A stretch of 64,000 bases of DNA, from positions 15,748,001 to 15,812,000 of the forward strand of contig JBHGNT010000008.1 in NCBI GenBank assembly GCA_043228905.1, given 5' to 3'. Positions 10,932 to 59,262 of the stretch are shown in pieces (within the stretch, counting starts at the first letter, position 1; each line of letters opens with the position of its first letter). Source of the DNA: Azolla caroliniana. Taxonomy: Eukaryota; Plantae; Polypodiophyta. The notes beneath the pieces are model-generated. The model was not told where the DNA came from, made no database searches, and saw nothing but the letters and a program-made list of their open reading frames with translations. The position numbers and the translations under genes were made by a program.

Positions 10932-11079
10932 TAGTAGGGTGGATGAGGCCCTACACATTTTTAATTGGTTTTATTGTAATGCATCATATGAATTGTTTGG
11001 GATCGTAGTAGGGTGGATGAGGCCCTACACATTTTTAATTGGTTTTATTGTAATGCATCATATGAATTGTTTGGGATCG
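10932..11079. repeat. Perfect 74-bp tandem duplication
   Basis: TAGTAGGGTGGATGAGG...TTTGGGATCG at 10932-11005 and again at 11006-11079. Confidence 0.9.
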
Positions 11080-12415: not shown

Positions 12416-12474
12416 CCCTTGCCCAATTCCATTAAAAGCTTTGGCAATCATGCAAGAAAGAACGAAGACAAGCG
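12416..12474. repeat. 59-bp flanking direct repeat of the Copia element (other copy at 17995-18053)
   Basis: CCCTTGCCCAATTCC...GAAGACAAGCG directly abuts both LTR ends and is identical on both sides. Confidence 0.95.
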
Positions 12475-12525
12475 TGTTGGGATTACGGTCCCTCCGGATG
12501 GGATAGTCAGATGTCCGGGAATCGG

Positions 12526-12693
12526 GATGAAGACCCAGTTACGGAACCGGATGATGAAGACCCCGGTTACGGAACCGGATGATGAAGACCCGGTTACGGA
12601 ACCGGATGATGAAGACCCGACTACGGAGCCGGATGACGAAGACCCGGCTACGGAGCCGGATGATGAAGACCCGGCTACGGAGCCGGATGACGA
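12526..12693 (+). repeat. About 6 x 27-bp tandem array inside the Copia LTR (second copy at about 17343-17510)
   Basis: Unit GATGAAGACCCGGYTACGGARCCGGAT. Confidence 0.92.
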
Positions 12694-13207
12694 ATGTACC
12701 CGGAGAGAGATCCGGATGCGGGGACATATTTGTGAATATGTTTGCCAAGGGCCCTTTGAGGCTATATTTGTAAATAGCCCGAAAGTCATATGCGTATAAA
12801 TATGACTTAGGGCAAACAGTTTGTGTCGCTACTCATTTTTCTGTTTTTCAACTCAAGAGGAGTGAAGAGAGAGCAGCCGAGAGAGAGATAGAGCGTGAGG
12901 GAGGAAGAGGTCGACGCCTCTGTGTAATACCGCCGCCTGTGGCGAGGATAGCGAGCTCAAGGTCGTCGCCTTGCAGCTCGCCATTGTATACTTCTCTGTG
13001 CATAGTTTTGGTTTGGAGTCTGGCACTCCCGTGGTTTTTCCCGTATAGGGTTTTCCACGTTAATCCCTGTGTTATCGTGTCTTTCTCTGTATTTCCCATT
13101 CTCTGTAACAACGATTCGTGTGTTTCCTCGGTTGTGGCCGAGTGGTGAAGGTGAATCGGAGCGTCGATTCTACAACAAAGTGGTATCAGAGCGAGTTGCT
13201 GCAGAAA

Positions 13208-29700: not shown

Positions 29701-32700
29701 ATAACTCAAGGGGGGATTATCTAGATCATTCTTAACGAGAGTAATATCCTAGCATCAAGCTCTGTACGAACTGTTTCCGGCTAAGAGCCGAGTACTGTAA
29801 TCACTATGAGCTTTATCATTTAATATAAGTTTCGTTTTGTTCTAATCTTCTATCTGTGTATTCTCCCCGTACTCATAAATCGAGCTACGTTTATACCTAA
29901 CAGGTTGTAGCCCATGTACGCTCCTCATTCTCCTTTCTTTTCCCCCGTGTAGAAGAGGCTTCCACGTAACACGATCCATTGACACCGATAGCCTGTTGGC
30001 TCATCGAAGGTGTTCCCCCAGAAACGGTTAACGCAATTTGGCACGCCCGGTTATAGCTGTAAGATCATAGCGAACTACGTTGGAAGCAAACCCCAGCCGC
30101 CATTACGGTGCCCAATCGCATCACACGGTCTCAGCCACCTTCCCGACCCCCTGAGCCAGTCGAAGGAACTTCCGACTCGGCGGTCACTGACCAATCATTC
30201 CAGGAACTATCGGAGGCTCACCAGGTGCAATCCTCGCCACCCGATACCCAGTCACGAGTTGATTCCGCACCAACATCCCCGCCGAGCCCTCCAGAGGTCA
30301 CCCAACCTGACCCTAACCCTTTTTCGGCTTTACCCGAGGACCCGGATCTCGATACCATGCCTTACCCTTACCCACGATATACCGACGGCCCCGATGCGGA
30401 ATCACACACCCGGGCGTTCTTATCCACATGGCAGGCCAACCACTCGATGCAGTGGTTATCGGCTGCCGAAATCGAGGCCTCCAAAATCGCGGAATTTGCT
30501 TTATCCCTCGTTGGCCCGGCTGCTCGATGGTACTCCCGCCTCGACATGGGGGAAGTGACAACATTCTAGGACGTCCGGACAAAGTTCCTAGAATTATTTC
30601 ACTGCCAAGTTCCGAAGCAGGAACTACTTCGGCAATTCTTTTCCATGAGCCAAGAACCTCACGAGACGGTCGCCCAGTTCACGATCCGGTTTCAGGATCT
30701 CTACCAACAACTGGCCGACGATGTCTCCGCTCATCACATTCCGGATACCTTCCTGTCCAGCCTACGGGAGCCTCTATGGACGACTCTCACACTTACAAAT
30801 TTCTCCAACCAAACTATCAAGCAAGTCATCGCACGCGTCCTCGCCATGGATCGGACACAACATAACACTGTTTTCTCCATGGGCTCTTTGCAAAGCTCCC
30901 TTCCTCAGGAGGACAATCATTTCCAACAAGCCCTCCAATGCACGGCCTGCTCTGGCTTAGGCCATCTGGCTCTTGAGGGCCCTCACCGGCCACACTGCCC
31001 AATATGTCAGTCCCGAGCTCACACGATCGAACAATGTGTGTACAACATGCTCAACCGCATAATGACGGCTCCGGTTCACCAGATCGGGCTGCGCAATACA
31101 TACTCCCGGCAAGATGAACGTCAATCATACCGACATCGGGCAAACGAGCGACCACGATCCCCGGATCGCTAGCGCTGCGATGACGACTACCATCATCCCA
31201 ACGACCGGTACCGCCACAACAATCGCAGGAGATCATACGACCATGACCAGTACCACGACGACCAATATAGAGCGAATGATGAGTACGATCGGTATGACAA
31301 CAACCGGGAGGACCGGTACGATCAGCGGTATTCACGAAACGATCAACAAAACTCTTATAGAGGTCCGAGGAACAATCAACGTCAGAACGACAATCGTCGT
31401 CGGGACCCCCCTCCAAACGCCCCGCACATCGCACACCGCGCCACGGGCCAACACGCCTACCCAAGCGGCTGGGAACCAATCACAATCCTTCCCACACATT
31501 GAGCACGGTGACACCAGCAACTCGGCATCCGTTATCTGCTTTAAGTGTAACCAACCCGGCCACTACGCTACCCAATGCCCAACCACGGAACCGGTTGTGA
31601 ATACTGTTATGGCCGATGTCCAAGACGTCACTACAAGTAGCAAGACCCACTCCAGCCAATGGCAAGAACAAGATGACATCTGACAAGCAACCAAGGAATG
31701 GATTGAGACCGCCAATAAAAGCAACGTGGCACGGATGCACACAGAGATGCGGTACGTGACCATCGACGCACCACCGGTCACAGGACCATCCGCCATGGCA
31801 GAAGATGACCATCTATGGGAAGCCCTTACAAGCGCTAGGATCTCGCTGCCATTACATAAGTTGTTACCGCTCATGCAACGCTTTCGGGATACCGTGGCTA
31901 AGCTCACGGCTAACGACATATCCTAGCAGGTAAAAGCATCAAAGCTCGAGTCACTGAACCTCGGCTCAGACGAGAACCCGCGGACACTTCAAATTGCTAA
32001 TAACTTACCAACCGACGAACGGCCAACCCTGACACGCCTGCTCACGGAATATCATGATGTATTCGCTTGCTCTTACACTGATATGAAGGGATTGGATCCC
32101 CCAATGTTACCAACACCAAGTACACCTAGTACCAGACACTCGGCCGATCCAACAACGACGGTACCGTATGAACCCCAACTACGCGGCTAAGGTCAAAGAG
32201 GAAATTGAGAAAATCCTTCGAGTAGGCTTTATACGCCTAGTAAAAAGAGCCACATGGTTAAGCCCAATCGTCGTGGTCCCCAAGAAAAACGGGAAAATCC
32301 GCGTTTGCGTTGATTACCGCAAACTCAATGCTACGACAGTCACGGATGAGTTTCCTCTTCCGTTCATGGATAGTGTCCTCGACACGGTGGCTGGTCATGA
32401 ATGCTACAGTTTCCTCGATGGGTTCAGTGGCTATAATCAAATGCGAATGCACTGGTGCCGATATGGATGCCCAATCGAGCTCATTAGTGACCAAGGCTGG
32501 CATTTTCTAAACCACATAATTCACGAACTCACTACACACTATGCGGTCATACATAAGAAAAGTACGCCGTACTATCCACAAGCAAACGGATTGGCGGAGT
32601 CGACTAATAAAATTTTGCAAACAATCCTGAAAAAGATCATCAATGAGAACCACACCGATTGGGATGACAAGTGCCAGAGTGCATTATGGGCGTATCGCAC

Positions 32701-34309
32701 CACATTCAAAACTAGCATTCAATCTACACCCTTTCGGACGGCCTTTGGTTTGGAAGCAGTCATGCCGATCGAGTTCCAAGTTCCGAGTCAGGACGCTTGG
32801 AGACAGGACATGGACGAAACGGTAGCTCAGGTCACCAAACGTTATGAGCAAACAATCGCGCTCATCACCGAAAAAGCAAAAGATAATCAAGCTACTTTAG
32901 CCAAGAAGAAGCCAAGGCCGCAAGGGAAGAAGTGGAAGTTCACCGAGGTAGCATCGGCATGGACGATACTAAAATCAAGATCCTGATCAACAAGTATCGC
33001 CAACAATTCACCAAGAAGATCAAGGAAATGCTTGACCATGTCTGGCAGGAGTGGTCAGCCCAAGCCGCAGACCTACACATACTACGCGCGGATGCCAAGA
33101 ACCGATGGAAGGAGGCCCGAGGGTTTTACAAAACGGATGACACCAGCATCCAAACCCTCCGTGAAGACTTGACTGAGGAATATCATACCTTAGCAACATC
33201 CCACACCGCATCCATCAAGCAACTTTTAGAGGAATTCAACAACGATCTAATGGTGTTTCGCTTAGAAGCCGAAGCTTACGAGGAGGAACGCTTAGCTACC
33301 GGGACTAACAGAGCTCCCATGACCAACGAGTAGGGAACCGAGCCGCCCACCACGAAAGCCAGACTGGAGGAACCTGCCCATACAGACCCCCACATTCCAC
33401 CCGAGCCACAAACTACAACCACGACCTTGCCTGAATCGGTACCAACAGAGGGCGGCGCACACTACGACACATCCATCCCCGATTCAGCAATAAAACCTCC
33501 ATCACCAACCCCACCTTCCGAGCAGCCAGACCAACCCCACGCTCCCGAGGATATCCTCGGCATATTAGAAGAGGAGTAAAACAAACCTATCAACCCTTGT
33601 ATAAACGAGCAATTTTTGGAATTTGTTTTGCCAAATCCATGGTTACCCCTCCACATTGTGAACCGTGGGTCCGACGGACAAATTCCTATCCCACGGGCGT
33701 GCCAGGTGTTGTCCATAGGCCAGAAATATAAATACATTACGTAAACTCGTCGTTAGGTAGAAGAGTAGGTGAGGAAATAGATAGCCGTGTTTTAGCCCTC
33801 ACAATCAGCCGATGGCTCGGCTCTGTCTCAAGAGGAAAACTATATAACCCGAGTTATGCATAACTCAAGGGGGGATTATCTAAATCATTCTAAGCGAGAG
33901 TAATATCCTAACAGCAAGCTCTATACGAACTGTTTCCGGCTGAGAGCCAAGTACTGTAATCACTATGAGCTTTATCATTTAATATAAGTTTCATTTTATT
34001 CTAATCTTCTATCTGTGTATTCTCCCCATACTCATAAATCGAGCTACGTTTATACCTAACAGGTTGTAGCCCATGTACGCTCCTCGTTCTCCTTTCTTTT
34101 CCCCCGTGTAGAAGAGGCTTCCACGTAACACGATCCATTGACACCGATAGCATGTGGGTTCATCGAAGGTGTTCCCCCAGAAACAGTTAACAAGGTGAAC
34201 ATCGCCGATTGCCTGACAAAGTCACTCCCAAATCAACGCTTTGGAGCACTAAGGACGAAGATGGGACTACGACAAGTGACCGAACGAGGAGCAGAAGGTA
34301 AAAATTGAT
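26769..34309 (+). mobile_element. Copia element B, degenerate: partial 5' LTR fused to integrase, then RT and RNase H, split by Gypsy C
   Basis: TGTTGAGAG start interrupts the RNase H of A. The LTR-like segment runs directly into GGEYTS...QNGVAE. RT (LYVDD) and RNase H carry stops and frameshifts. The reading frame KIDTEV|NIADCLTK resumes after 34197. Confidence 0.85.
29548..34192 (+). mobile_element. Ty3/Gypsy element C (non-chromovirus-like), internally deleted
   Basis: 486-bp LTRs 29548-30033 and 33707-34192 (about 19 differences by eye). TSD AGGTG. PBS TGGCACGCCCGGT (tRNA-Arg UCU type) at 30039. Broken gag with zinc knuckles. RT start (WLSPIVVVPKKNGKIRVCVDYR, LDGFSGYNQ) is fused to the integrase core (ISDQG, YYPQANGLAE). 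No PPT. Confidence 0.93.
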
Positions 34310-37300: not shown

Positions 37301-39051
37301 TGCGGAAAAGGACGACCCGGGACAGGGTCAGGAAGACAAAACGGCGGTCTACGGAGGATCCTTCACACCGGTTCTAGAGACTTCAGCAGTCGGCAACGCG
37401 GTCGACGTAAGACAGAGATACTGACGCTGGCGGCGAGGTGACGAAGGCAATGGGCGTAAGGAAGTCCGGTCCTACAGGATCTCCACACTTAACCAGAGAC
37501 TCCGGTAGTTCGGCCAACGTGGCAACATGAGACCGAGAGAGAAGGATGGTGGCGGCGGGAAACGGGACCCAACTAAGCGGAAGACACGAGGAGAGTCCAG
37601 GAGGGACTCAAACAAAAGGCACCCGAATTTCGGCAAGCATAGAAACGGAGTCCGGTCCTATGGGACCCTCACACTGATCCGGAGACTCCGGCAGTTCGGC
37701 CAACGTGGCAACGTGAGACCGAGGGAGAAGGACGGTGGCGGCAGGGAACGGGACCCGACGACACGAGGTTTCGGAAGGAGCCGGTAGGGGCAAACACGGG
37801 GAGGTGTGTCGGGCCGGAAATGCACACCTAGGACGGAATAAGAGTCTCGCAAGTGGCCGTCGCGGGCCGGATCAAAGCGTGACTAAGGGACGGTGTTCGG
37901 CACGGGTGGTGCCGAACGAAGGAAGCGACAGACGGCACAAGAGAAGTGCCAGGAACGAGGTGACAAGTGCCTAGTGGACTGCAAAGGGTCGGAGTCAGGG
38001 GATGGCAAGAGAGGGCGAAGGAGGATCCTCCACACTCGCTTCGTAGATCTCGATAGCTCCGTCGAAGTAGCGAAGACTGACACGGCAAGCCGGGGTGACA
38101 AGCTGGTGGGGGCGAGGGGACGACGGCAAACGAAAGACTAAGAACCTGTTGTAGCAGCACGAAGACGGGAAGGGCCAAGCGGGCCGCTATGAGCATTCCT
38201 CAAGCGGAGGACATCGGGCATACGGCGGGAAGCGGGGCGTTCATACGGTCGAACAAACGCGACAACGGAAGTACGCGTACTACGGAGATCACGGCAGAGG
38301 ACCCATCGACGGGTCGAACGAGCCTACGGGGAGTTAAGCGCGAAGGAAGAATCGAAGCCGACGGATCAAACCGGCAGCGAGCCGGGATGCGGATCACGGA
38401 AGACCGGTTTCTCGCCAGCCGAAATCTCTCACCTTTCAACCAGTTTTGGCACGTACCAGTGGACGTGCAGTTAGGTGGGGGCGGATGTCGTGAAGAATTT
38501 CGGCTAGAGGCGGAAACCGGGAAACATTGGCTACCTCAGCGGGGTGCAGCGTGTGTACGCACCCATGTACATTTAGTGTGAATAACGAGGGGCCTTTATG
38601 GCGCCGAAGAGTAGTCAAGTCGGGACAAACGATCCCATGTAAGTCGGGATTTCTCCCACATTGTAACGCATCCCTTTCCTTGTTCTATAAAAGGAAGGGA
38701 ACGCCCTTTGTGAAAGGGTTGCCCATTTTGCTTTAGAGGGTATACCGTTAGGTTTAGAGTTAGTTTCTTCTTCTTCTTCTTCTTCTCCTTCGTGTTCGCT
38801 TAGGGTTTGCTTCAGCTCATCTCCTGCGCAAGACCCCGCTCGGTGCGACGAGCCCATGAGCTCCCCGACGGCGGCTTGGTAGCTGACGACTACTGTAACC
38901 TGCCTTGGAACGGCTCGAAGCCGGGAATGTATTCTTCTTTTTATATACATAAATACGTTTGCGGTTGTCTGTGTATATTCGCATCTTCGTTGGTGTCGGG
39001 TGCTTCCCCTTTCCTGCACTTCCTGTACTTAAGGGTGTGAGTCGGGTTGGC

Positions 39052-39102
<51 letters not shown>

Positions 39103-39350
39103 TGAGTGTGCCTGAGTCGGTGTTAAGTGTGCGCTCTCTCTCTCTCTCTCTCCCTTCGGTTGCTTCCGGTGTGCTTCTGGGATGCCCCGGAAACGGTGAA
39201 GCACGACTTCCTACGCTCCATCACTCCCTAGTCCAAGACCCCCGTGGTCCCGCCTTTCTCCACGCACGCGCGTAACAACGCGACAACGTTGTTTGTTGTA
39301 CACAGTCGTAAGATCTGAACAGACGCATCCGCATAAACGTAAGATCATCA
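34310..39350. mobile_element. Solo-LTR-like unit G (about 440 bp; 34310-34687 plus 39290-39350) split by element D
   Basis: Terminal 8-bp inverted repeat TGATGATC...GATCATCA, TATA-like motifs inside, flanks do not form a TSD. Confidence 0.6.
34688..39285 (+). mobile_element. Non-autonomous Gypsy element D (gag fragment plus GC-rich repetitive interior)
   Basis: LTRs 34688-35465 and 38486-39285. 4-bp TSD ACGT. PBS TGGTGAACCCGACATGA (tRNA-Trp type) at 35470. PPT AGGTGGGGGCGGA. Gag-like fragment RFNGDKVPSFLEAY at about 35503-36130. No pol motifs seen. Confidence 0.9.
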
Positions 39351-42300
39351 ACGCCGCCCAAACAAAGCAGCCCGGAAGAAAAGACGATTGATGACGACAT
39401 CATCGAAGAACTACTGAAAAAGTTCGAGATGGTCACGCTAGCCAACATGAATTGTCGAGGCCCCAAAGGAAAAGAACCCTTTAGATGCGTGCGGTGCGAT
39501 AGCATGGACCACATGAGAAGGGATTGTGTAAGCCTTCGAGATGTCATTCGACAAAATATCGTATACATGGATGACAACATGATCTGCTCGAGTGAGACTA
39601 AAGGACTCCTACGAGTGAATTTTGGAAGAGGGGGAATGAAGAAAGTTATGGAGGATGCTGAGGCGACTCATGTGGATGCGATGCACTATGTTGCGTTGGC
39701 CGGAATAAGAGTTGGGAAAGACAAAACTGAAGTTGCGAAAGCGGGAGCAAAGTTTTGGTCTATCGTTCTTGAGTATGAGAACAAGGGAAAGGTCACTCCC
39801 AACGAGGTAGAGCTTGTGGACCGAAGTGTGCAAAGCATAACCGGATGGTCAGATCCTGTGGATGACAAGGAAGTGATGTGCGACAACCACGAGGTGTTTG
39901 TCGAACAAAAGAGAAAAGAATAGAAGAGCAAGGCCCATCGAAAAGACATGAAACAGGGAACGCGTAAAAGAAGGAAAATGCGGAAACGAGTCGAGCTTTA
40001 CAAACGGAGGGACGAGAATCAAACCGAAAAGGGGAGTCAAGCAAACGAGTCGAAGAAACCATTCAGCATGTGAAGGTTGGCCGCTCGGAAGACAAGAACT
40101 ATGCCTACCTATAAGCTAAGGTCGGACATAGAGCAGACTACAGATCTGAAGAAGATTCTCGAGGAACGTGTTCTCGATAGCCACGTGACCTTGTCCTTGA
40201 GGGAATTGCTCGGCATTAAGAAGAAGGAGTTCCATGATACGATCATGGACCTTGTGAAGAGAAAAAGGCAACAGTCGGACGAGGAAGAAGAGAAGTCGTT
40301 AAAAGCAAAAACAAATGCCATAACTATGGCAAGGGATGAAGTCGATGAAGATTTGGTGGACAACCACTATACTTGACCTCATTGGGCATGAGCGACAACG
40401 GAGACGCCAGTGAAGATCGGGGAGAAGAAAGAGACCGTGGTAGCCTTGATCGACCATGGCTTGGAGATCAACCTCATGTCGACCGACTTCTACAAAAATG
40501 GAAGATGGCCAATTAATACAAACCACGGATGGAAGATTCAAGCGGCAACAAAGGTGACAGAAGACTTATACGAAGCTTATCCAAATGTTAAAGTCACGAT
40601 CAGGGATGTGAAGATGGATCAACACTTCTTTGTACAAGAATCGGCTTCGCATCCTGTCATCCTAGAACAACAATATATCACATCATCCCGGATGGAGACC
40701 AAGGTGTTCGATAATGGAGCAACCTTTGTGCGAATCAAGATTCTTGACAATCAAAGATCTGTTCAATTCCTGACGGTGCGAGCTAATCATGAAAGAAATC
40801 GAGATAGTCTTGGAGGCGAAACCTCGGATTTTTAGAGCGGACTATTGAAGCATGGGGCACAAATAGTCCGAGAGATCAAAAGTCCCCACAAGAAGGTAGA
40901 GCGCGTGGATTGCAAGGAGAAGCAACATGTGTCACACCTAGTGGCGCATGTAAACTAGTACTACCCAACAAGAAGGACAAGCGTTGGATACAAGTTTTCG
41001 AGAAGATGCTGAAAGAAGAAAACATAATAGAAGAAGAAGAGTTTGTGACTCATATTATGGAAGAAGCCTCATTTAACAACACCATCGGCGAAATCGAGGA
41101 CGTCGTGGACTTGAGCTATCTTCACGATCGACACATGGTTTCGGTTAACTCCATTAACATGTACGCTATCATCGATGACTATCATCGAAGCATCTTGATG
41201 AAGGAAGCTAACATCAACACAATATAAAACAGTGGATTGGAAGATCAAGCCAGTTACGGTTCCGCTACCGGAAGATAGCTGGCAAAAGATGAAGGAAGTT
41301 GTTAACGATCCAAGCCTAAGAGATCCAAAGGCAATAGGTCATGTCTTCACCGAAGAGATGAAAGGAAAGCTATGAGTTGGAAGGGAGGATTTCCTCCTCC
41401 CTGAAGAGGAGCAAATGTTTTGCGACATGCTTGAGAGACATGGGAAGGCTTTCGCATTTTTCCCACAAGAAATTGGATGTGCTGATCCAAGGACAATAGA
41501 GCCAATGGTAATCTTCACGGTACCGCACGTGCCTTGGAATTTGAAACCGATACCGGTTCCGAGAGCACACCTACTGAAGCTGATCGAGCTCTTAAAGGAG
41601 AAGGTGGATATGGGAATTTTGGAACCGCCGAATGCTCCCTATTCTAATAGGTGGTTCACGGTGCCGAAGAAGAATGGATCATTGCGATTCATCCAAGATC
41701 TTCAACACGTCAACAAGGTGACAATTTGGAATGCTAGAATCGGACTAGGTGTGGATGAATTTGCCAAAGCGTTTGCGGGCCGGTTCATCTACTCTATTGG
41801 CGATCTCTACTCCGGGTATGACCAATTCCAGTTGGCAATCAATAGTCGTGACATTACGACCATGACGACTCCGATTGGGCTCATGCGGATGTGTACCTTA
41901 CCTCAAGGTGCAACGAACTCGGTGGCTCATATGGTGAATGCCATGAACAAGGTCTTGAAGGACTGCATCCCGGACATCACGATGCCATTCTTGGATGATA
42001 TTTCGATAAAAGGATGTTTGGATGAGGAGAAAGATGAATTGAAAGATAAGGAAGGGTGTAGAAAGTTCCTCACGGATCATATGAAAGATTACGAGAAGGT
42101 GCTTCAAAGGCTCGAAGACGCGAATTTCACATTTTCGGGAGAAAAGTCCGCATTCGGGCAACCGGAGATCTTGGTGGTAGGTCACTTGTGTTGAGCATAC
42201 GGCCGGAAGCCTTCGCCATCCAAGGTGAACGTGATCCAAGACATGAAAGAAGAATGCGTAAACCAAACGGAGGTTCGAAGGTTCCTTGGAGCATGCGCGT

Positions 42301-45300
42301 TTTATCATATCTGGATTCTACACTACACTCATGTCGTCGAGCCATTATATGAACTACTAAAGAAAAGAATGAAGTTCGAATAGAGAAGCGAGCATACTAA
42401 CGCGATGCGAAGATTGAAGAAACTACTTCTTGAAGCTCCAGCACTAAGAAAGGCCGACTATACCGGAGGGAAGCCGATTTATGTGACTGTAGATACGAGC
42501 CCAACCGGAATCGGGTGGGTCATCAATCAAGAAGGAGAAGAAAATGCGCGGTATGTCATCCAATTTGGAGCAAAGGTTCTCAGGGAACAACAATGAGGAT
42601 ACGCCCAAGTGAAGCGGGAACTTTGGGGTATTGTGTCGGTAGTGAAGACGGACAAAGACTACCTGATCAGGTCGGAAGTGATAATTGAGACAGATTGTCT
42701 CTCAATCCTTGGGTTGATCTCAGGATGTGCGACACCAGATCTGGTTATGCTAAGATGGATCGCTTATATTAAATGTTTAAACCCAGAGATCCGCCACATT
42801 GCAGGAAAGAAGAACACCATGGCTGACATGTTGTCCAGGGCAAGATTTGAGAATGAAGGTGACATGGTTTCAGAAGATGAAGACGTCACCCTGGGCTTCT
42901 TCAAGATGGCTCGACTATTGGCGAAAGAGAAGGGCACGCTAACCCTCCACGCCTTCAATGAGGACGAGTACGAAGGGGAGTGGTTACTAATCGGTTGATT
43001 CCTAAGAACAATGACAACGGATGCTTCGTTGACAAAGGAGGAGGCCCTACGAATCCGAAAGAAAGCTTACCAATACTTCTTGAAGGGAGGATTCCTTTGG
43101 CGACACCCAAAAAGAAGGATAGGAATACCATGTCGAGTGGTGGTGAAGAAAGAAGAGCAAGTGATGCAAATGACCGAATTCCACGAGAGTGCCTGGTCAG
43201 GTCATAGAGGAACATGGGTGACGTTCGAGAAGTTGAAGGAGAAGTACTGGTGGCCAAGAATGTACAAAGATGTACTCCATTTCGTGTCCACATGCAAAAC
43301 ATGCCAAGTACATTCGAATATACGTCATCGTGATGAGCTACGACCGACATACCCGCTCACCATACACTTCAAATGGATGGTGGATCTAGTCTCAATGCCA
43401 ATGGGAGTGGGACAAATGAAGTACTTAGCTCTAGCAAGAGAAGACTTGACAAATCAAGTGGAAGGACGGGCCTTGACAAATAAGACGACGTCGGCAGTTT
43501 GCAAATTTCTACTCGAAGAGGTTGTCTGCCGATACGGATGTGTGGGAAAGATAGTGGCCGACCGAGGGGAGTTGGATGCACACGAAGCAATGGAGCTTTT
43601 TGAACGACTAGGTGTGAAGCTCTCCCTCATGATTGCCTACAATCCAGAAGTGAATGGGAAGATCAAGCGAGGGCATGGACCTATCGTCAAAGCCATTGTA
43701 CAAGCATGCAACGATCGAGTCGGGAATTGGCCACGACTATTGCCCTATGCCTTGTGGGCTAACAGAACGACACACAACTCGGTGTTAAGGTATATGCCAA
43801 CGGATCTTATGTATGGACAAAAGCCGGTAATGCCCATCGAAAGGACGATTGTCTCATGGGTAGTGATACCATGGGAGAACGAGATGAGCCAAGAAGAGTT
43901 ATTAGCGGCACGGATAAGGCAACTTGAAAGAAGACCTGAAGATCTAGAAAAAGCGTGAAAGATGATGGAGGCAGCCCGAGTGAAGAACAAAATTCGATTC
44001 GACAAGACGCATCGACTGCGTCCCAAGAAGATCGAAGAAGGAGATTGGGTATTGGTCTACGACAGCAGCCTTGACAATCAACAGAGTACAACAAGAAAGT
44101 TCGCAAGAAGATGGTTCGGACCATATGTGGTGACAAGTGCCAACGATAATGCCACACCCATTGCAGGGAAAGACGGATCAAGGTTGGCCGTACCCATTGC
44201 GGTGAAAAGAGTAAAGATTTTCAAGAAAAGACAAGATGAGGATCCTGACCTCGATCACCTCGATGATGAAGATAATAGGACAGATGTGAATGAGGACGTA
44301 GAAGAATCTGATTGATCATCGTAGCTGAAATCTCGCACTCTCTCTTTTTGGCACGTACCGGAGGACGTGCAATTTGTTGGGGGTGGATGTTGTGAAGATT
44401 TTCGGCGATAGTGTAAAACTTGTGAGGAACATACGAAATCAAGTGTGGTTCTTCTCACGAAATATAAAACAATAATAGTGAAGATACTATTTTAAATAAG
44501 TTTAATATCTTGGTACAAAAAGATGGAGGTCTTGAAGAGCTTTTGAATGCACTTTGCTACATAACAAACGGTCATCTAAGTGTAAAGTTATATGGGTATG
44601 AAGTTGTGAAAAAAGAAAAGAAAAGAAAAGAAAAACAAACCTATGAGATGTGCCACATAGATAGGACAAACAAGGATCCTACAATATATAAAGCAAAGCC
44701 AAAAGCTATTATTTTGTGTCTATGTGTGGAGCATAAAGAGTTCAAGGAGACTTGAACTAAGTTAATCAAATGAATGGGTGTGGCCTAGCTACTTGCAAAG
44801 GTTTTGGCCAACCAAAACCGGACCGGCGGCAACCGGCATCCGGCCGCCGGCGAGGCAGTGACGGAACCGGATCGAGATGCGGCAACCGGCTGGTGACGGA
44901 ACCGGCTAGGGATGCGGACCAAACGGGTGCAAATTGGACGGATCAGTTGATCGCGGTACATGGTGTCTTAGAAATATTTGGTGCAATTACAAGACCAAAA
45001 GCCTAATAGTATTTTGTGCTTAAAAAAGGGGTGTATGCAAGACTTGAACATTGCACCTCCAAGTTGAGAGTTTATAGGCTTACCACTATGCTTTTACATG
45101 TAATTCTCATACATGAGAGCTTAGATGATGACATGGCAAGCATGCATTTCATGCATGTCTTGCACCCTCACATGCACCATATGCATGGGGGCATTTATAA
45201 AAGAGTGGAGGAATCAAGAAAGTGTGGACTAAGGTAAAAAAAATTGGAATGTAATTTTTGGGGGAAAATAATAAGAAAACTCATTATCCTATTGATATAT

Positions 45301-45473
45301 CTTGTCTCTCAAATCTAAAGTCAAGCGTTCAATCTTTATCTTAATCTCTCTCTCTCTTTTAATCTATCTTAAATACTTTCTCACTAAAGCTAGTGCAAAC
45401 TTCGAATCCTTCTTGTCCAGGACCCCGGTGGTTCCGCCTCACGATCCGCACCTAGTGACGGATCTTCACGACA
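39351..45473 (+). mobile_element. Gypsy element E (Ylt1-like motifs), 5' end missing, pseudogenised gag-pol and 1.09-kb 3' LTR
   Basis: Knuckle CVRCDSMDHMRRDC. Protease LIDHGLEINLM. RT YSNRWFTVPKKNGSLRFIQDL, DLYSGYDQF, PQGATNS, FLDD. RNase H VDTSPTGIG. Integrase HESAWSGH...CKTC, ADRGE. 3' LTR 44388-45473 (TGTTGTGAAG...CTTCACGACA). Confidence 0.9.
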
Positions 45474-46879
45474 ACGTAACTGCCAATGTCACAATCTCGC
45501 ATCAAGTGAGCGAGGATTGAAAAAAAAAAACCAAATGCAAGTTTTCACGTGTAAATCCTCTCTTTTGTATACTAGAAACAGTGAGTCCTCTCTGTTTCTA
45601 GGTTTAGTGGAGGAAGGATACCTTTCACCAAAAGTCTATTTTCCCCAAAAATAGGCATGGAAAAAAAAGTTCACATAGAAACATGTACTAGATATTATCT
45701 TTGTTGAGTTCTTGAAAAATAGCATTCGCAGAGGGATAAAAACAGAGAAGTTGGATGCTTTCTGCCACACACAGTCTTCACGAAGTCCTGCGCTCTGATA
45801 CCACTGTTGGAGAGGAACGATGGAGGCGGACGAGCTGTTGTTTTTACCTACAAAGAAATGTTGAACAACACACACAGAAGACAGTACACAAAGAAATAGA
45901 AAAATACAAACACAACTTTTTGGGGGCACACCGAAACCCTCATTTCTATTGAGTTTTATACCTATACACTAATAGTGAGAAATTACCTTTTTGGCCTTTT
46001 CTCACTATCATTAACAAAGGGCGGTGTTGCCATTGATCTTAAGAGAAACCTCATTGGTAGTATGTAGCTTGGAACCTCACTGTTAGCTTAATCATTCTAC
46101 CTTGATTAACCTTATAATCATGCTTGTAATTATTTTGTGATAGCATTCAAAACTCTATTTAGCAAAAAGGGTATCTTGTAAAAGCTTATATTTTGGACTT
46201 TAACAGATGTAACTTTAATCTCATCCTAACCACTTCCGTGCTTTTGAAAGAGAGAGGGTGGACGGGAGGGAGGTTGATTCACATAGCTAGTGGAGTAAGC
46301 CCTGGGATCAAGGCGACCCTCAACTCTGACCAACCATCGATTGTAGCCTTCGACTCAAGTGAGCCTTCGAGTCTAGCGAGCCTTCGAGTCTAGTGAGCGC
46401 TTGACTTTAGTAAGCCTTCGATTCTAGCAAGCCTTGGGTCTAACGAGCCTTTGAGTCCAACGACCCCTCAACTCGAATAGAATCACCCAAAAACATTATT
46501 CACACTAAAAAAGGGAAGTTTATGTCTGATGACCCATGAAGGGGTTTTAAGTCTTCTCTCATGGCATCACACCTTCTCTAGTTTAGGTACCTATTTCACG
46601 CGAGTAGGACACGCACGCGCATTAATGAGACGTCACTACAACATGACCCCAAATGGCCCATGGAAATTTAACTTGCATGACCTACTACTCACTAGATTGT
46701 ATCATCTCTACCTTGAGATGGGTGTTGAGCACAAGGTAGACCTATTGTTCCTATCACAAAACATTAGTACAAGTAACAAGAAGAAAGACAAACAACAACA
46801 AGCATTACTTAATGAATTTTTATGTTGAGAAGACATGGAGATGAATAAATGTGAGTTTGGCCAATAGGTGGCATCAAGA

Positions 46880-47387: not shown

Positions 47388-49827
47388 ATGGACAATAATT
47401 CATAATGCTCAATATGGGTTTTTAGCAAAAAGAGACATTTTACATAATATTTTAAATGTTCAAATGGCAATTGACTATGCAAAGGATTCGAAGCAAGAAT
47501 TGGTGTTGCTACAATTAGATATCGAGAAAGCCTATGATAATGTGGATTGGTTGTTTATAAATCAATTGATGTCTCATATGGGTTTTGGTGATCGTATGTC
47601 TAAGTTGATATACACATTAGGGAGGGGAGGGTTCAGTTTCACATGTGATGTTTAATGGAGGAGTAACACAACCGATTTCTATTCGGAGGTCAGTTAGACA
47701 AGGATACCCGGTAAGTCCTTTACTATTCACTATTGTGACACATCCTATTCTTGTTAAGTTACACAATATGGCTATGGAGGAAGAATTGCTTGGACTAAGG
47801 TTGCCATCAAGGAAGCCATGTATTGTTCAAGCTCTAGCAGATGACCATATTATGTTTTTGGCACCTAATCGGGAAAATATTAGTAAGACAAGAGATGTGT
47901 GGGAATTGTTTTCAAATGCTTCAGGGTTCAGAATTAATATACATAAATCTGTCCTCATTTCATGAACAGAACAAGATGTGTTGGGGTTGGGGTGGTTAGG
48001 AAGGATAGTACATCGTGGTATGATTTTTCATCACCTTGAATATCCAATTGGGGTGGAAGTTTCTCATGTGAAACTTATTCAGTGGGTGTCCAAAAATTTG
48101 GAGGATAAGTTTATGTATTGGAGGTCTCAAATTTGGCCTTTTCATGTATGACTTAAGGTGGCCCAATTGATTATGGTCTCTATGGTATCTTATTATCTTC
48201 CTTTGCTCCCATGGTCAAAGAAAGCTCTTGAAATATTGACACGCTCAATGCGAATGTTGTTATGGAAAAGAAAAGGGAAAAGTGCCTTGTCGTGGTTGGC
48301 ATGGGATCATATTTGTACTCTGAAGCGTCTTGGCGAGGCATCAATATTAAATCTATATGAGCATATGGTGGCTCGCCAATTTACTTTCATTCTATTTATG
48401 TTTGAAGGTGTACAACCTTGGACAGAAATGGTGGCATACTTTATAGAGAAGAACGGAATAAAGCTTGGAAACATGAAGGTTGAAGCAAATTGGTGGAATG
48501 TAATTAATTCTGATAGGGATGTCAAATGTGCAGGGTCTATGATAGTTGATCATTTGTTGACATCATGGCAAAGTATGTTAGATTTTGTGGAATGGCATCC
48601 CCCACAAGAAAGGGGATGTGCCAATTCATTACAAATGGAGGTTTTGGCGACATCAAGGTTATTGAAGTGGGAAGGTAAGCAAATTTTTAACCTTCAATTT
48701 AATCGGATGGCTAGATTGGGTTTGGTAACAATTAAGGATGCTATGTTGGTGTCACAAAAAAGATTAATGGCTTTTCGAACAATCAAATCAACATTTCGTA
48801 TTCCAAAAGGTTATACCTTTATTTGGGATAAGTTGCAACAAATACTATCTTCGTATGAGCCAATTCCTTATTTAGATGGACGATCTCAAGAGCTTGATTG
48901 GAGGTTTGTTGGAAATAAGAGATTGACTATGATCTCAACAAATGTTGCTTATCACACATTGATTAACAAACATAAGTGGTTGGAAGGAAGGGTTATAAAG
49001 ATATGGGGGTTTCATAAGCCCATTACTTGGTGGCTTCATGTGATCAAGGCAGGTTGGTGTTCTCGATTAATGCTATGAGCCAAGGTATTTGTTTCGAGAG
49101 TTATGATTGGAGTTTTACCATTGGGGGATGCATTAAAAAAAAAGAAACATTACTAAAGGATTGTGTTTCTTTTGTTCGGTAGAATTGGAACATAGTAGGC
49201 ATCGATTTATTTCCTGATGAGCCAAGGTATTTGTTTCGAGAGTTATGATTGGAGTTTTACCATTGGGGGATGCATTAAAAAAAAAGAAACATTACTAAAG
49301 GATTGTGTTTCTTTTGTTCGGTAGAATTGGAACATAGTAGGCATCGATTTATTTCCTGCCCGATGGCAAGGATGGTTTGGAGGTGTATCATTTTAGTGTG
49401 GATGTCTCTAACCAGAGTACGTCTATCTTCCTTCAATTGGGTTTTTGCACATATGGAGAACAATGAACCAAGGCCTCATTCTCAAATTATTTTTGAGTTC
49501 TTGAGGTATTGGGGGCTATGGTTCAATTGGAATATGCGGAATGCCTTCATTTTTTATTCGCAAGTGGGGGTGAGAAAATATGTTCTAAAGTTAAAAAGAC
49601 TTATTTTGTGGCAATTGACAGTGCTAGAGAAGTCACGAAATCTCAACCAGGAAGAGAGAGAACTCTGCCAGGTCACATATCATCATATTCGCCATTTGAA
49701 TGGGTGTGTAGGGTGGCATTGAATTTGGTGTCGTAGTTTTCTTTAGATCCCTAGATAGAAGGGGTTCTATAGTTTGTTGTAAGTTAATCATGGTGGTGTT
49801 TTTTCTTTCGTAATGAAAGCCATTATT

Positions 49828-52800: not shown

Positions 52801-53877
52801 CAGTTTACCCTCTCCTATCGAAAAGGTGTAACCAATTTGGTCGCTGATAGTCTCTCTCGCGCCGATTTCCAAGTTGTCCAATTTCTACCCGCGACGTCTG
52901 ACCTTCCACTACCACTACCACAACTTGCTACACTTCAGCAACACGACCCTGCCATCCGAGAGATAAAGTTGCGCTCCCTCCAACCATTTCCCTCACAACA
53001 ACGGTTCATGCTCCACGATAACTTGGTGTCCTTCATTCAGGCGCATCACGAGCCGCGTCTCTACATCCCTCATGCCCTACAACAGACGTATCTCCAATTT
53101 TATCACGACCACCCATTGTCGGGTCATCTGGGTTTCCACAAGGTTCTTGAAAAATTACGTCTCAAGTATTATTGGCCCAACATGCGACACTCTGTCTCTA
53201 CCTACATCAACCAATGTGCTTTGTGTCAACACATCAAACCCGCGAGCAGGCCCGCCGGAACACTCCAACCCATCACCGTCACATCGCCTTTCGAGCTCGT
53301 CAAATGGGATTTCATGGGACCTTTTCCCAAAACCCCTAGTGGTGACAAGTATATCCTGGTCATAATAGAATACCTCACCAGATGGGTTGAAACTGTTGCC
53401 ATCCCTAACGTCACTACGCCAACAATCGCATCTCAACTTTTGCATAAGGTAATTTTTCAACATGGTTGCCCTGTCCAACTCTTATCTAATCAGGGCCACC
53501 AGTTCCATGGGGACGTCCTCAATGCGGTTGCAACTCAACTAGGTGTCCAGCAGGTGTTTACATCCCCGTACCATCCGCAAACAAAGGGCCTCACCGAACG
53601 CCTCAACAAGACCCTCAAGCAGGAGATTGTCGCTTACATTGATCCAGGCCACAAAACCTAGGATCAAATCTTGCCTTTCGTCACCCACGCCTACAATACA
53701 TCTGTTCAAGCGTCAACACAAATCAGCCCTTTTCGAGCACTCTATGGGCGTGACCCTCGGCTCCCACCAAAACCATCCATTGACGTCCATTCCAAACCTA
53801 CCAACATGGATGGTTCCACTTGGGGGCTCTATCTCCAACAACTGCTACCTCTCCTTCGATAGCAAGCTCTCGAAACC

Positions 53878-56800
53878 TGTTACCGGCCGGCAAGGAGTCC
53901 AAAATACGGAATTAATTAGATGGTTGTAAATGAGCATAGTGTGGACGGACGGACTGGAAACGGTATGCCGTTCCAGATCCGGACGGATCCCGAATAGGTG
54001 CGAGAGACACCGTTTTGTAATACGGGCCGGAAACCTATTTAAAGGCCCGGACCCCATTGTAATGACAGCGGATAATTAATAGAGCTTATGATGTTTGTAT
54101 TTTTGTCTTGATTTCCGTTCTGTAATTACTGTTATATCTTACGCGTGTAATTAACCAGAGCAATCTAATCGTGTAACCTACGTAAATCGGTGTAATCGTT
54201 GAATCTTAATCCTATGCCGTAATCACCTTTGGTGAAGTGTCTCCGTGACACCTTGTGTTAGGCCTTGTCCGGCTAAGAGAATAACACAGTTTTGGCGACC
54301 ACGATTCCTGCTTTCTCGCAGCGAACGACGGTAATGGATGACTAGACCAACGCACGACTTGGGTACAGACCGAGCTCGACGCCTCGCCGAACGGCAAAGA
54401 CGGCGTGAGACTTTCCAGCAAGCAGCGCAGGAAATTCGCTCGGATCGTTCGTTCTCCAACGAGATCCGGAGAGTCGCGGAGGAATCTCTCCGGTTACGGC
54501 AAACTCGCGACCAGGACGACGGAAGCAGTCTAAGTAGTCTCCGGGAAACCGAACGACTCCTGGAGGCGCTGGCAAGCGGAGAAAACGAGGCAGAAGCCTT
54601 TTCAGCCTACGAATCGGATTCCGAAGGGGGATACAGCGTGCACACGAACTACCGGAGCAGCAACGATACCCCCGGCGGCCCGGAAGACGACGGGTCGGAT
54701 AACGTGCCGACTCCAGAACCGGAACCGCTCAACCAGGGCTATCCGGAACCGCAAACGGAAGCCGTCAACCCACCAACACCGGAAGTGGAACAAGCAAAGC
54801 CACCAACACCAACGAAAGGGCCGGCAAAGGTACCGGAAGAAGAGCCGGAAAAAGAACCGGAAGAAGGACCGGCAAAAGAACCGGAAGTGGAACCGGAGAA
54901 AGAACCGGAAAAATATCAACAAACGCCACTAAACCGCGGCTTAATATTGGACGACGACATGCCGTTCCAATACTCAAAGTACCGCGATGATCCGGATGCG
55001 GAAGCACATGTGGATGACTTCGAGCAGACATGGGAAGCAAATCACACGTCCCAGCGAATGACACCGGAGGAAGAAGAACGCTCGAAGATAGCGGAATTCG
55101 GAGTCACGTTGGAGGGACCAGCGACACGATGGCGGCGGTCGAAGGACCCGGCGACCATCACAACATTTGCAGAATTAAAAGCAAAATTCTTGCATTTTTT
55201 CCACAAGGAGGTCGACCAGACGACAATGGTGGGGCTGTTTTATACGATCCGGCAGGAGGCAGGGGAAAGCATTCCCCAATTCGTCATCCGTTTCCAACGA
55301 ATGCATAGCCAGCTTGCCCGTGCACCCCCGGAGGAGGAATTACGGACGATATTTTTAAACGCACTCCGGGAACCGTTACGCACGGTGTGTACGGTGATTG
55401 ACTTTCGAGGATGCACCATCGATCAGGTCATTGATCGGGTCAGAGAAATGGAAAAGACAAGCTCATGGCTTACGCTGGGAACACTGCAACGGGCGTTACC
55501 CACCGAGGAAGATCTCCGGTTCCGGCAGGCAATTCAATGCACAATCTGCTTGAATGCCGGACACTCGGCAGTAGAGTGCACCATGCGCACTCAGTGTGTG
55601 ATTTGTCAATCCAAGAGTCATACAACGGACCGGTGCGAGTACAACCTGTTAAATCGACAAGCACCACCCGTCCGACGGATCGAGCCAAGAAGCAGCCGAG
55701 ACGAAGATGACGATCGTTGGCAAAGAGGGAACCGGTACCCACCGGCACAAGATGTCCGGTACGGAGACAGGCAAGAGAATGATGGCCGGTACGGGAATCG
55801 GCGTGATAACTACGACCGGTATGAGCGATCGGACCGTTATCGGGAGCCCAACAGGCGACACGAGCAATACGATAGAGACCATTCCCCTGGTTACCGAAGG
55901 CACCAGGAGGACTACGACCGATGTTACGATCCACCACGGCCGGACTACCGAAATAAACATAAGAATAATAAGAAACGTAACTTCAAGAAAGGTGGTCACC
56001 CTAGGGACCCGGAACATGGAATCCCAAGGAGCCAACCGGCACAGAACGCACCACTCGCTACGGGACCAACTCCGGCTACCAACAATGCTGAATCCAGCAA
56101 TACCCGTAAAGAGTACTGCTACTACTGCAGGCAGGAAGGCCACTACAGTAACCAGTGCCCGGTAAAGAGCTACGAGAGGTCCCGGATCCGGGGAGAGAAA
56201 GAACGAGAACCAGTTACGGTCAACCTCAGTGATGAGGAACCGTTACTGGAAGGAGACCAGACCGGAAGCAGTCAAACGGAGATGCCGGAGCCAGAGAGAC
56301 AAACGGAGCAGCCGGAGTCAGCGAAACAAATGGAGCAGCAGCAGCCAGCAGAGCAGCCGGAGCAACCTCAGTCACAACCGCAATCACAGCAGCAGCAGCA
56401 AGCACAGCCGCAACAACCACAACCGAAAGAACAAGCGGAAATTCTTGAACCAAGTATTTTGGACAATTTGGGTGAACAATGAAGGGGCCGAGAAGGGTTC
56501 GACGTACAAGGTACTGTCCCACGGGCATGCCATGTGTTACCGGCCGGCAAGGAGTCCAAAATACGGAATTAATTAGATGGTTGTAAATGAGCATAGTGTG
56601 GACGGACGGACTGGAAACGGTATGCCGTTCCAGATCCGGACGGATCCCGAATAGGTGCGAGAGACACCGTTTTGTAATACGGGCCGGAAACCTATTTAAA
56701 GGCCCGGACCCCATTGTAATGACAGCGGATAATTAATAGAGCTTATGATGTTTGTATTTCTGTCTTGATTTCCGTTCTGTAATTACTGTTATATCTTACG

Positions 56801-56943
56801 CGTGTAATTAACCAGAGCAATCTAATCGTGTAACCTACGTAAATCGGTGTAATCGTTGAATCTTAATCCTATGCCGTAATCACCTTTGGTGAAGTGTCTC
56901 CGTGACACCTTGTGTTAGGCCTTGTCCGGCTAAGAGAATAACA
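53878..56943 (+). mobile_element. Gag-only Gypsy element F, very young, related to element C
   Basis: 409-bp LTRs 53878-54286 and 56535-56943 differing at 1 position seen. TSD AAACC. PBS TGGCGACCAC (tRNA-Arg UCG type) at 54293. No pol and no PPT. Confidence 0.95.
54338..56482 (+). CDS. Retrotransposon Gag-like protein (714 aa) with three CCHC knuckles, acidic/Pro-rich N-terminal linker and Gln-rich tail
   Basis: Open ORF. Capsid-like core homologous to the gag of element C (MPFQYSKYRDDPDAEAH vs MPYPYPRYTDGPDAESH). CTICLNAGHSAVEC, CVICQSKSHTTDRC, CYYCRQEGHYSNQC. Confidence 0.88.
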   Translation: MTRPTHDLGTDRARRLAERQRRRETFQQAAQEIRSDRSFSNEIRRVAEESLRLRQTRDQDDGSSLSSLRETERLLEALASGENEAEAFSAYESDSEGGYSVHTNYRSSNDTPGGPEDDGSDNVPTPEPEPLNQGYPEPQTEAVNPPTPEVEQAKPPTPTKGPAKVPEEEPEKEPEEGPAKEPEVEPEKEPEKYQQTPLNRGLILDDDMPFQYSKYRDDPDAEAHVDDFEQTWEANHTSQRMTPEEEERSKIAEFGVTLEGPATRWRRSKDPATITTFAELKAKFLHFFHKEVDQTTMVGLFYTIRQEAGESIPQFVIRFQRMHSQLARAPPEEELRTIFLNALREPLRTVCTVIDFRGCTIDQVIDRVREMEKTSSWLTLGTLQRALPTEEDLRFRQAIQCTICLNAGHSAVECTMRTQCVICQSKSHTTDRCEYNLLNRQAPPVRRIEPRSSRDEDDDRWQRGNRYPPAQDVRYGDRQENDGRYGNRRDNYDRYERSDRYREPNRRHEQYDRDHSPGYRRHQEDYDRCYDPPRPDYRNKHKNNKKRNFKKGGHPRDPEHGIPRSQPAQNAPLATGPTPATNNAESSNTRKEYCYYCRQEGHYSNQCPVKSYERSRIRGEKEREPVTVNLSDEEPLLEGDQTGSSQTEMPEPERQTEQPESAKQMEQQQPAEQPEQPQSQPQSQQQQQAQPQQPQPKEQAEILEPSILDNLGEQ

Positions 56944-57472
56944 AAACCTACAAGTCGCACAACAACGCCAAAAGCGACACTACGACGTGGGTCGAATTAC
57001 CCCAACTTATGATGATGGAACCAAAGTCCTTATTTACTTCCCGGTCCGACGGCGCAGTCTTAGCGAATCACTCATGCACTGATGGATCGGCCCATTCACC
57101 GCGGTTCATGCAATCAAATCCACGACTTACTTGCTCTGATGCGATTCCAATGGTCGCTTCACCTCCGCCCATGTTGCCCGCATCAAGCCCTATGCTACCC
57201 CAAGCCCATCTTCTAGCACTAGTCCTTTCCCCATATCGTAAAAATCCTTGTTTCTCTCAGGGGGGAAATGTGGTGTCCCTTGGATGCAAGTGCATGCCTT
57301 CACGTTGGGTCTACATGTGTTCCTTTGTGCCCCTTTTAGCATACCCTTGTTAGGACGCATGTAGCTAAGTAGAGCCAACCCAAATGGGTACCTTTGTACG
57401 ACTATAAATTGAATAGGAAGTAAGAAGCTAAGCAAGCTGGTTTTGGATTCCATTTATGTGCATTTCACAATA

Positions 57473-57509
<37 letters not shown>

Positions 57510-58840
57510 ACACCCCATATCCCAAAGCCAAGGTCTAGTAACTTGCTAATGGAACTAACGCATTGATACTATGCCCAAAGGAATCTTATAGGTTAGGATC
57601 ATTGTGCACATTATGACAAATCAAATGGTAAGCGACCATTCATATTGAAGAGATCCATGGATTAGAGTTATGTCGCAAGAATGGAAGTAAGAGTGCAAGA
57701 TGTTATCACTTAGAGGTCATCCATTAGTTAATGGGAGCCTACTCTAACATTAACCCCCACTAATGTAGCTTTATGTATGCATAAACAAAAGTGTGCAAAT
57801 GATAGGTTTTATTTCATCATATAGTTCAATTAGTTGTACTAGATTTTTCTTAGATATTCTTTTTCCATTTTATGAGAGATTATGTATCATTTTGTACATG
57901 TGTGTGGCTCTCCTAAACCTGGTTTAGGTTATGTTGGAATGTTCTATATACTGTTATATATAGCTATTTTTGGAAAGTCATTTTGGTTTTGCTTGTCCTT
58001 TTAAAGTTATAGCATTACACCGAATCGCATGGGGAAGAAGTTACATGGAGATGCTCAGGGATTCAAAAGAGGAGTATTCCTTGAAATGGCCATTGTTCAA
58101 AGCTTCATGTTAGTATGGGCAATGTGGAACATGTCTAAAATTTAAAAATCCATTCCAAGGATTGACGCCAAGGTATCCCATGTTTTTTCATAGGCCCATG
58201 GAAATGAAGATGTGGTTTACTGTTTATGTAAGCACCCCATCACAACATATGTAATATTACATACTTTGAGGTGCATGCTTGAGATACTTGTGCTTCAAGC
58301 ATGTAAATGTAATATTACTTTGAAGCACATGTCTTAGATTATGGCATATTATTGCACAAATGATTCGGGTATCACACCACTACTTTCAAGTGGATTTGGC
58401 CTCACAACCTCCAGTATTATATAGTGTTATTTCGGAACACATGTGTTAGGTTATGTCATACTCCTTTGAAGCCATTTCTTAAGAGTCATCATCATGGTTT
58501 CGAATGGTTATGGCACAAATGATTCAAACATCAAACAACCATTCAATTTATTCCATAGTTTGTACATTCATTAGCTAAATTTCTGTTATCTAAATGCAGT
58601 CACAAATATACAAGCATTTTCAAAATTAGTTTGTTTAGCTTATGGCCGCTACTTACATTTACTCCTGAACTCCTAAACGAAAAGACAGATTTTAAAACTT
58701 AGAATTTCTTAAGAACATCATTTAAAAGAGTGCCCTTAATTTGAAGGTAGAAACCTCGATTGTCGGGTATTTCCACAATTTGCACGGGTTCTTAACTTCA
58801 ATCCTTTCTCATTTCTTAACACCCATGCTTTGCCATTGAA

Positions 58841-58986
58841 CTTGGGTTTGAACCATGCCAACTAGTTAGCATAAAATGGTTCAATCACAATCACCATTAC
58901 ATGGGGTCGAAGTTGGGTTGAACCATGCCAATTAGTTAGCTTAAAATGATTCGATGATCACAATCACCATTATATGTGGTCGAAGC
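58841..58986. repeat. About 70-bp diverged tandem duplication
   Basis: TTGGGTT(T)GAACCATGCCAA...CACCATTA...GGTCGAAG occurs twice. Confidence 0.75.
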
Positions 58987-59042
58987 TGTGTTGCTACATA
59001 TACCAATGTAGTGAGCTTAAATTGATTCAATCGCAAACATCC

Positions 59043-59262
59043 GATAAAAATGGACCAAATCCCTCAACAAGTTCAAGGAAAAATAGGGTCATGTGTTCGA
59101 ATTTGAAATAGGGTATCCCCGATAAAATGGACCAAATCCCTCGACAAGAAGGAACAATAGGGTCATGTGTTCGAATTTGAAATAGGGTACCAGATAAAAT
59201 GGACCAAATGCCTCAACAAGAGGGAACAATAGGGTCATGTGTTCGAATTTGAAAATAGGTTC
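59043..59262. repeat. 3 x about 72-78-bp tandem repeat downstream of psaD
   Basis: Unit GATAAAATGGACCAAATCCCTCAACAAG...AATAGGGTCATGTGTTCGAATTTGAAATAGG. Confidence 0.88.

Follow-up and report, generated by a model that had tools for sequence, protein, structure and literature searches.

Priming of the second strand by a polypurine tract (PPT) is, to our knowledge, regarded as universal in retroviruses and long terminal repeat (LTR) retrotransposons. In Ty3 the primer binding site (PBS) is bipartite, the second tRNA-related part lying close to the 3' end; the tRNA is bound on the genomic RNA and the 3' part is dispensable. Drosophila Gypsy has 5' and 3' tRNA-Lys2 sites that also bind tRNA on the genomic RNA, the 3' one being dispensable according to the available text of PMC1635307. 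The lineage described here shares with Gypsy an additional tRNA-related site close to the 3' end, but differs from both Gypsy and Ty3 in that its RNA is identical to the tRNA, only minus-strand DNA could bind the tRNA and the PPT is replaced. Canonical reverse transcription, as outlined in the available part of PMC3185662, is recognizable in the tRNA at the 5' PBS, the LTRs, the 5-bp target site duplication (TSD) and a primer end 2 nt from the LTR, whereas the RNase H-resistant PPT of that scheme is here replaced by a tRNA-sense site plus a hairpin. A full-text literature search, mostly without subscription papers, returned no case of an LTR element that carries a tRNA-sense site where the PPT would be.

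The closest described lineages are Tat Z1 and Tat Z2 of non-flowering plants, non-chromovirus Ty3/gypsy elements that resemble the present lineage in having an intact native RNase H and no additional RNase H (aRH); the terms PPT, PBS and primers have 0 occurrences in the accessible text of the two papers on them (PMC10508981, PMC13468544). An Arg-type PBS, as found here, also occurs in TatIII, Ogre and Retand (PMC6317226, supplement 5), a source that in its accessible part gives PBS types only. Non-standard primers are found in the self-priming elements Tf1, Tcn1 and TAR, which replace the first-strand tRNA (PMC6317226, as accessible), whereas the present lineage keeps a tRNA-type PBS, and so was rejected as a member of that group, and would change the second-strand primer. 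The Helenus TRIMs also hold tRNA-derived sequence, as a probable promoter within the LTR, with PBS and PPT kept and a priming role excluded by the author (PMC10886601, in the text available); membership of Helenus/TRIMp3 was rejected, the module here lying outside the LTR in elements with no PPT. Phygy (4-bp NCGN TSD, tRNA-Trp PBS) was rejected on the 5-bp TSD and different PBS found here, and Athila because neither its Asp/Asn PBS TGGCGCCGTTGCC nor its conserved PPT junction was found. The available portions of the S. osmophilus preprint and of ATHILAfinder describe ordinary PPTs.

Element F and its 3' junction

The window, a 64,000-nt stretch of Azolla caroliniana DNA, is nested LTR-retrotransposon DNA. 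The element designated F has the following features.

53873..53877, no strand: left TSD AAACC; F is inserted in Gypsy element E, at the 3' end of its pol
53878..54286, + strand: 5' LTR, 409 bp, TG...CA, with a TATA-like box on the + strand at LTR position 158
54293..54302, + strand: 5' PBS TGGCGACCAC, 6 nt from the LTR; identical PBS in the autonomous relative L037
54335..56482, + strand: gag-only ORF, 715 aa stop to stop, with Retrotrans_gag and a zinc knuckle
56493..56502, + strand: 5' strand and loop resembling a tRNA T arm; F has AAGGG TTCGA, most relatives GTGGG TNCGA
56504..56514, no strand: inner hairpin GTAC-AAG-GTAC, in which families differ by compensatory changes; in an extension, 56501-56503 pairs with 56516-56518
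56516..56532, + strand: 17-nt tRNA-sense 3' end GTCCCACGGGCATGCCA, CCA-terminal and one C short; a PBS on the minus strand
56533..56534, + strand: 2-nt spacer TG (NG in 11/11 complete junctions), at the place that follows the PPT in ordinary elements
56535..56943, + strand: 3' LTR, 409 bp, with one mismatch between the two F LTRs
56944..56948, no strand: right TSD AAACC

The 5' PBS TGGCGACCAC is one that we take to be of the Arg-UCG type. F is an internal-deletion derivative of the family of L037, with 90% nucleotide identity over 54247-56175 (~1.9 kb) and the same PBS, and as a non-autonomous element it would borrow enzymes from full-length relatives. Of the features expected of Ty3/gypsy elements, the TG...CA LTR pair with TSD, the tRNA-type PBS and, in autonomous relatives, the gypsy order are present and the PPT is absent. 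The module recurs in element C:

29548-30032 and 33707-34192: LTRs of C, with TSD AGGTG and a broken gag-pol between them
30039..30051, + strand: 5' PBS TGGCACGCCCGGT, whose complement holds both C's, one of which the 3' site is without
33665..33706, + strand: module, the same as that of F
33688-33704, + strand: 17-nt site ATCCCACGGGCGTGCCA, followed by the spacer GG and the LTR from 33707

A reading of the window from sequence only had described F as recently transposed, as lacking a PPT and as carrying a tRNA-sense site with the same 2-nt spacing and the same missing C as in element C. These descriptions hold: the LTRs of F differ at one position and AAACC stands on both sides, the site is at 56516-56532 followed by TG, and neither strand has a purine tract. 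In both F and C the PPT is absent in either orientation, the + strand having 7/13 purines with a longest run of 3 and the minus strand 7/13 purines with a run of 5. The same reading had placed F in a different family from C, with no LTR similarity. The LTRs are indeed unrelated (best blastn match 12 nt, E 1.0), but the sites in F and C are shared by descent rather than independent in origin, because the Gag proteins are homologous (40% identity over 376 aa, E 2e-69) and belong to one lineage. The 16-mer of the site occurs twice in the window against 0.02 copies expected, a count reached in 0/100 shuffles.

In the control elements A, D, E and L081, a purine tract occupies the place of the module (in D the run is merely 5, with 9/13 purines), and the position and spacer of the module are the same as those of their PPTs. 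Upstream of the 3' LTR, 7/13 purines with a run of 3 were counted in 11/11 junctions, compared to runs of 5-11 in the controls, and the register of CCA, 2 nt and TG is kept in 11/11 complete junctions. CCA is located exactly 2 nt before the 3' LTR; the end of the 17-mer coincides with the required end of a plus-strand primer.

Relatives in public assemblies and sequencing runs

Relatives were sought in public (metagenome) assemblies with integrase as the seed rather than the motif, yielding at least 409 confirmed stretches, the best 80 of which were used. Among these 80 loci, 12 reach at least 3,200 nt beyond the integrase core, and all eight native 3' junctions carry the site followed by 2 nt and TGTT, with no PPT. 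A ninth contig (L030) ends within the site; L008 is too short and L002 is truncated, and both stand outside the junction count. L058, in which no module precedes the LTR, was rejected as a counter-example: it is not a native junction, because homology to the family stops at ~4120 and D-like DNA follows. From another collection comes L082, a distant relative (66% RT-RNase H identity) with both LTRs, a third PBS type and the variant site CTCCACCAGGTGTGCCA followed by AG, which is likewise one C short, at a different place; its TSD is imperfect and its contig likely chimeric. In that contig (C10 of G001, with loci L120-L123), from a collection of prokaryote genomes, ~18 kb of retrotransposon sequence is joined to genes of bacterial type. 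LTR starts were fixed without the motif for F, C, L009 and L082 by their two LTRs, for the L021 family by the 5' LTR in L055 and for L003 by likeness to C; those of L007, L012 and L013 were set from their first bases alone. The 80 loci come from one assembly series and some contigs are collapsed, so the honest count is five families in one clade; this spread among families excludes a one-off accident. The PPT has been lost throughout this lineage and a structured, tRNA-derived module stands in its place. The eight native junctions among the best 80 loci plus F, C and L082 support the claim of the sequence-only reading that the site is functional, in that it appears to behave as a lineage-wide replacement of the PPT.

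Among the homologues is a Gag-Pol of 1,836 aa that contains RT, RNase H and integrase; Pfam finds neither an additional RNase H nor a chromodomain in it. Gag, RT, RNase H and integrase are in gypsy order in the autonomous relatives P0028, L009 and L082, and protease in autonomous relatives has a weak Pfam match (E 0.002-0.008). The native RNase H is intact, with three catalytic motifs found and the fourth visible by eye in P0028. Quick trees were built from integrase (45 rows) and from RT-RNase H (33 rows, five proteins with too little RT-RNase H omitted). In both, all carriers of the module fall on the same side of a branch, close to unnamed elements and to those of the liverworts Marchantia and Riccia and apart from aRH-bearing Tat; the nearest named proteins are from liverworts. 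Because all carriers form one clade, they represent one origin and not repeated evidence. The lineage appears to be a Tat-like, aRH-less clade and would fit Tat Z1/Z2. The 5' PBS of nine elements starts with TGG, lies 2-6 nt after the LTR and is of three tRNA types, the names of which are presumed. TATA-like boxes were found on the + strand in F, C and L027, on the - strand in L082, and not at all in three others. Viral contigs yielded no close relatives and one distant element, L081, with a normal PPT; seven pattern matches there were rejected as unrelated phage repeats.

Autonomous relatives have an extra ORF of 940-1190 aa between pol and the module (7515-11099 in L009, 6958-9888 in L021), with no credible Pfam match; its top match in Atlas is an unnamed plant cluster (0.91), with leads below 0.9 to Transposase_32 and an ATHILA ORF. 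In L082 (6428-13762), pol extends a further ~1,100 aa downstream of the integrase core; this part, which Pfam does not match, may be the extra ORF fused to Pol. Element C retains a remnant of this ORF at window 32801-33573, and an in-frame deletion at window 32452 fuses the start of its RT to the integrase core. A look-alike of the site within the extra ORF of L002, L005 and L006 was rejected as a central primer site, since it encodes NPTSMPQ and varies at synonymous sites.

Four sequencing runs from three organisms contain the family of F, and their contigs were placed on window positions 56470-56560. Summed contig depth is maximal at 56522-56525, at 8 to 176 times that of the two end bins, and the peak reaches 4-6 nt into the LTR end. 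In each run, 32-52 contigs cease to match at 56495 and 21-37 do so at 56538, their flanks agreeing at ~0.5; because the contigs diverge on both sides into dozens of unrelated flanks, many unrelated families share just this stretch of ~45 nt. The sole difference listed in the runs is at 56527, where the A of F is private to this copy (G makes up 95-97% of contig depth in the four runs and is the letter at the equivalent position in C). The missing C, which the sequence-only reading had called persistent, is missing in 11/11 aligned sites, and no insertion reaches 2% in the four runs; the run data support, and do not prove, that it is fixed, because contig depth does not measure copy number and some differences established from the loci are absent from the run table.

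The module and candidate primers of the plus strand

The sequence-only reading had the site begin at 56516; the conserved unit is longer, starting at ~56493 in F and consisting, in order, of GTGGG-TNCGA, a hairpin and the 17-mer. If the hairpin is taken out and the rest is completed with the complement of the 5' PBS, the module corresponds to the T arm and the 3' acceptor strand of a tRNA. When viral contigs were searched with that completed pattern, 70 of 84 matches lay within ARAGORN tRNAs of many types, five of them Arg(TCT). By what we take to be standard tRNA numbering, the hairpin is inserted after A58 and the 17-mer is bases 59-76; the 3' site is presumably of the Arg-UCU type. Bases 49-62 of that tRNA are likewise presumed, with viral tRNAs as stand-ins for the host gene; no tRNA-Arg host gene was found in the 50 loci scanned (of 82) or in contig C10 of G001. 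Rfam has no match over the module of L009. Upstream of the module no acceptor 5' strand is conserved, and hence there is no full tRNA-like fold.

Within the 17-mer, 8 of 170 aligned cells differ, all of them G to A and attributable to four events. Such changes would yield T-G wobbles; a single one is fixed in a family, and the other three may be methylation decay. Wobble offers no explanation for a G to T in L030 and a possible C to T in L082. The hairpin shows compensation at three pairs (10 cells, 0/500 shuffles, at the best of seven registers), a figure inflated by related sequences. In the outer stem the 3' strand is invariant and its cis partner varies, and L082 keeps the 17 tRNA-like bases without the outer stem. 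The minimum-energy fold contains the covarying hairpin in 7/7 modules as minus-strand DNA and in ~4/7 as plus-strand RNA, and the CCA-proximal 10-12 nt are open in five of the seven minus-strand DNA folds; no fold is better than shuffles (z -1.3 to +0.4). Both the identity and the number of the T-loop-like bases vary, which makes pairing to tRNA bases 49-58 doubtful. The 3' site stays while the type of 5' PBS differs among families; in L012 and L021 a change in the 3' site coincides with one in the 5' PBS, as one event on the tree.

These patterns suggest that a host tRNA probably primes the plus strand on minus-strand DNA, replacing the PPT. One tRNA would start the minus strand at the 5' PBS, and RNase H would then clear the RNA. 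The minus-strand DNA is predicted to fold the covarying hairpin, leaving free the 10-12 nt that match the CCA end of a tRNA. A second tRNA, presumably of the Arg-UCU type, would anneal to these nucleotides with one of its C's bulged out, and its T stem would probably open the outer stem through strand exchange. RT would extend this tRNA across the spacer and the LTR; the tRNA would be removed by RNase H, and integrase would trim the 2 nt. Because the site reads as tRNA on the RNA, a tRNA could pair with minus-strand DNA only. A partner in trans is indicated by tRNA-like letters that remain constant beside a freely covarying hairpin and are retained in L082 without the outer stem. The missing C would persist because the 3' site is copied from RNA and never from tRNA, and the C family keeps both C's in its 5' PBS, as expected if the 5' PBS alone is recopied from tRNA. 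On balance, the lineage is likely to be an abundant and recently active one of plant LTR elements without a PPT in which both strands are primed by host tRNAs, often two different ones, the second being loaded on a DNA hairpin derived from a captured tRNA 3' half split at m1A58.

The sequence-only reading had also favored two different tRNA primers; its case against simple self-pairing was upheld, but it overlooked the element's own tRNA-like RNA as a primer. By this route, which is possible though on the unlikely side, the hairpin and the GGGCGUGCCA tail of the genomic RNA would escape RNase H and, like a PPT, prime after a cut behind CCA, the place of the cut being explained by likeness to the end of a tRNA primer. 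It requires no new trans factor, matches the position and spacer of a PPT, makes use of the conserved hairpin, and agrees with the place of the missing C, precisely at the boundary between the hairpin and the 10-nt tail. However, any RNA pairs perfectly with the DNA copied from it, so it would be unexplained why every letter stays constant to one tRNA type in families with other types of first primer; nor is an acceptor 5' strand conserved upstream to complete a tRNA-like fold, or any Rfam match obtained. If instead the module were a captured tRNA relic with another job (packaging, dimerization, integrase end or small-RNA decoy), the plus strand would begin from a non-purine RNA remnant or elsewhere. 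The depth peak runs 4-6 nt into the LTR end, as such a relic would allow, but the register of CCA, 2 nt and TG in 11/11 complete junctions defines the end of the cDNA, where no other conserved mark exists, and the relic is quite improbable.

A reversal of strands, with the minus strand packaged, the 3' site as first-strand PBS and the 5' PBS priming the second strand, would still leave both strands tRNA-primed. The 3' site lies at the classic distance of 2 nt from the LTR and matches tRNA over 17 nt, compared to 10-14 nt and a spacer of 2-6 nt at the 5' PBS, and a PPT is absent on both sides. However, gag-pol and the extra ORF lie on the + strand, as do the TATA-like boxes of F, C and L027 (against the - strand in L082 and none found in three), and a first-strand PBS would regain its C from tRNA, a regain not seen; spacers of 3-6 nt are normal for the 5' PBS of Athila in the accessible text of 10.64898/2026.03.20.713144. 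Reversal is therefore very improbable. Self-priming, in which the 3' site pairs with the element's own 5' PBS and circularizes the RNA, draws on 11 contiguous pairs (~-25 kcal/mol) in the C family, but just four are available in the recently integrated F and in L082, which already contradict it and bear out the earlier claim that the site cannot depend on the element's own PBS. L012 and L021 offer eight contiguous pairs without compensation, and the plus strand would be left without a primer. Self-pairing is also unnecessary, because the 5' PBS changes among three tRNA types beside a constant 3' site, and it is exceedingly improbable.

Priming by a host tRNA predicts an extra C and tRNA modifications on the primer, and implies that tRNA is loaded on DNA. 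Under either leading mechanism, host tRNA or the element's own RNA, a successful lineage without a PPT would be a second solution, and a natural system for how RT and RNase H pick the plus-strand primer. Such elements will be missed or reversed by annotation tools that require a PPT or take the orientation from the PBS; the 45-nt module is usable as a search seed.

Neighboring elements in the window

Element B (26039-46010) is an ordinary Copia on the minus strand and served as the control for a simply inverted element; nested within it are C, D, a further Copia-type stretch and a Gypsy-type pol (41376-43958). The module-bearing elements were rejected as ordinary inverted elements like B, having gag on the + strand, a PBS at both ends and no minus-strand PPT. 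Element D has a 4-bp NCGN TSD as in moss Phygy (here ACGT). This Phygy-like element and a related one carry a sense PBS-like stretch, TTTTGGCACGTACC..GGAC, at 38447-38465 and 44349-44367, ~40 nt before an ordinary purine tract, possibly as a second tRNA-binding box on the RNA. Element A (12475-17994) is a young Copia with 703-bp LTRs that are 99% identical and a 1390-aa ORF; its insertion is flanked by a 65-bp duplication (12415-12479 and 17994-18058). ARAGORN predicts a tRNA gene at 11439-11524, probably for Met and interrupted by a short intron. Exact tandem duplications span 49075-49358 (142 bp) and 10932-11079 (74 bp), and a 72-bp tandem array lies at 58838-59261.
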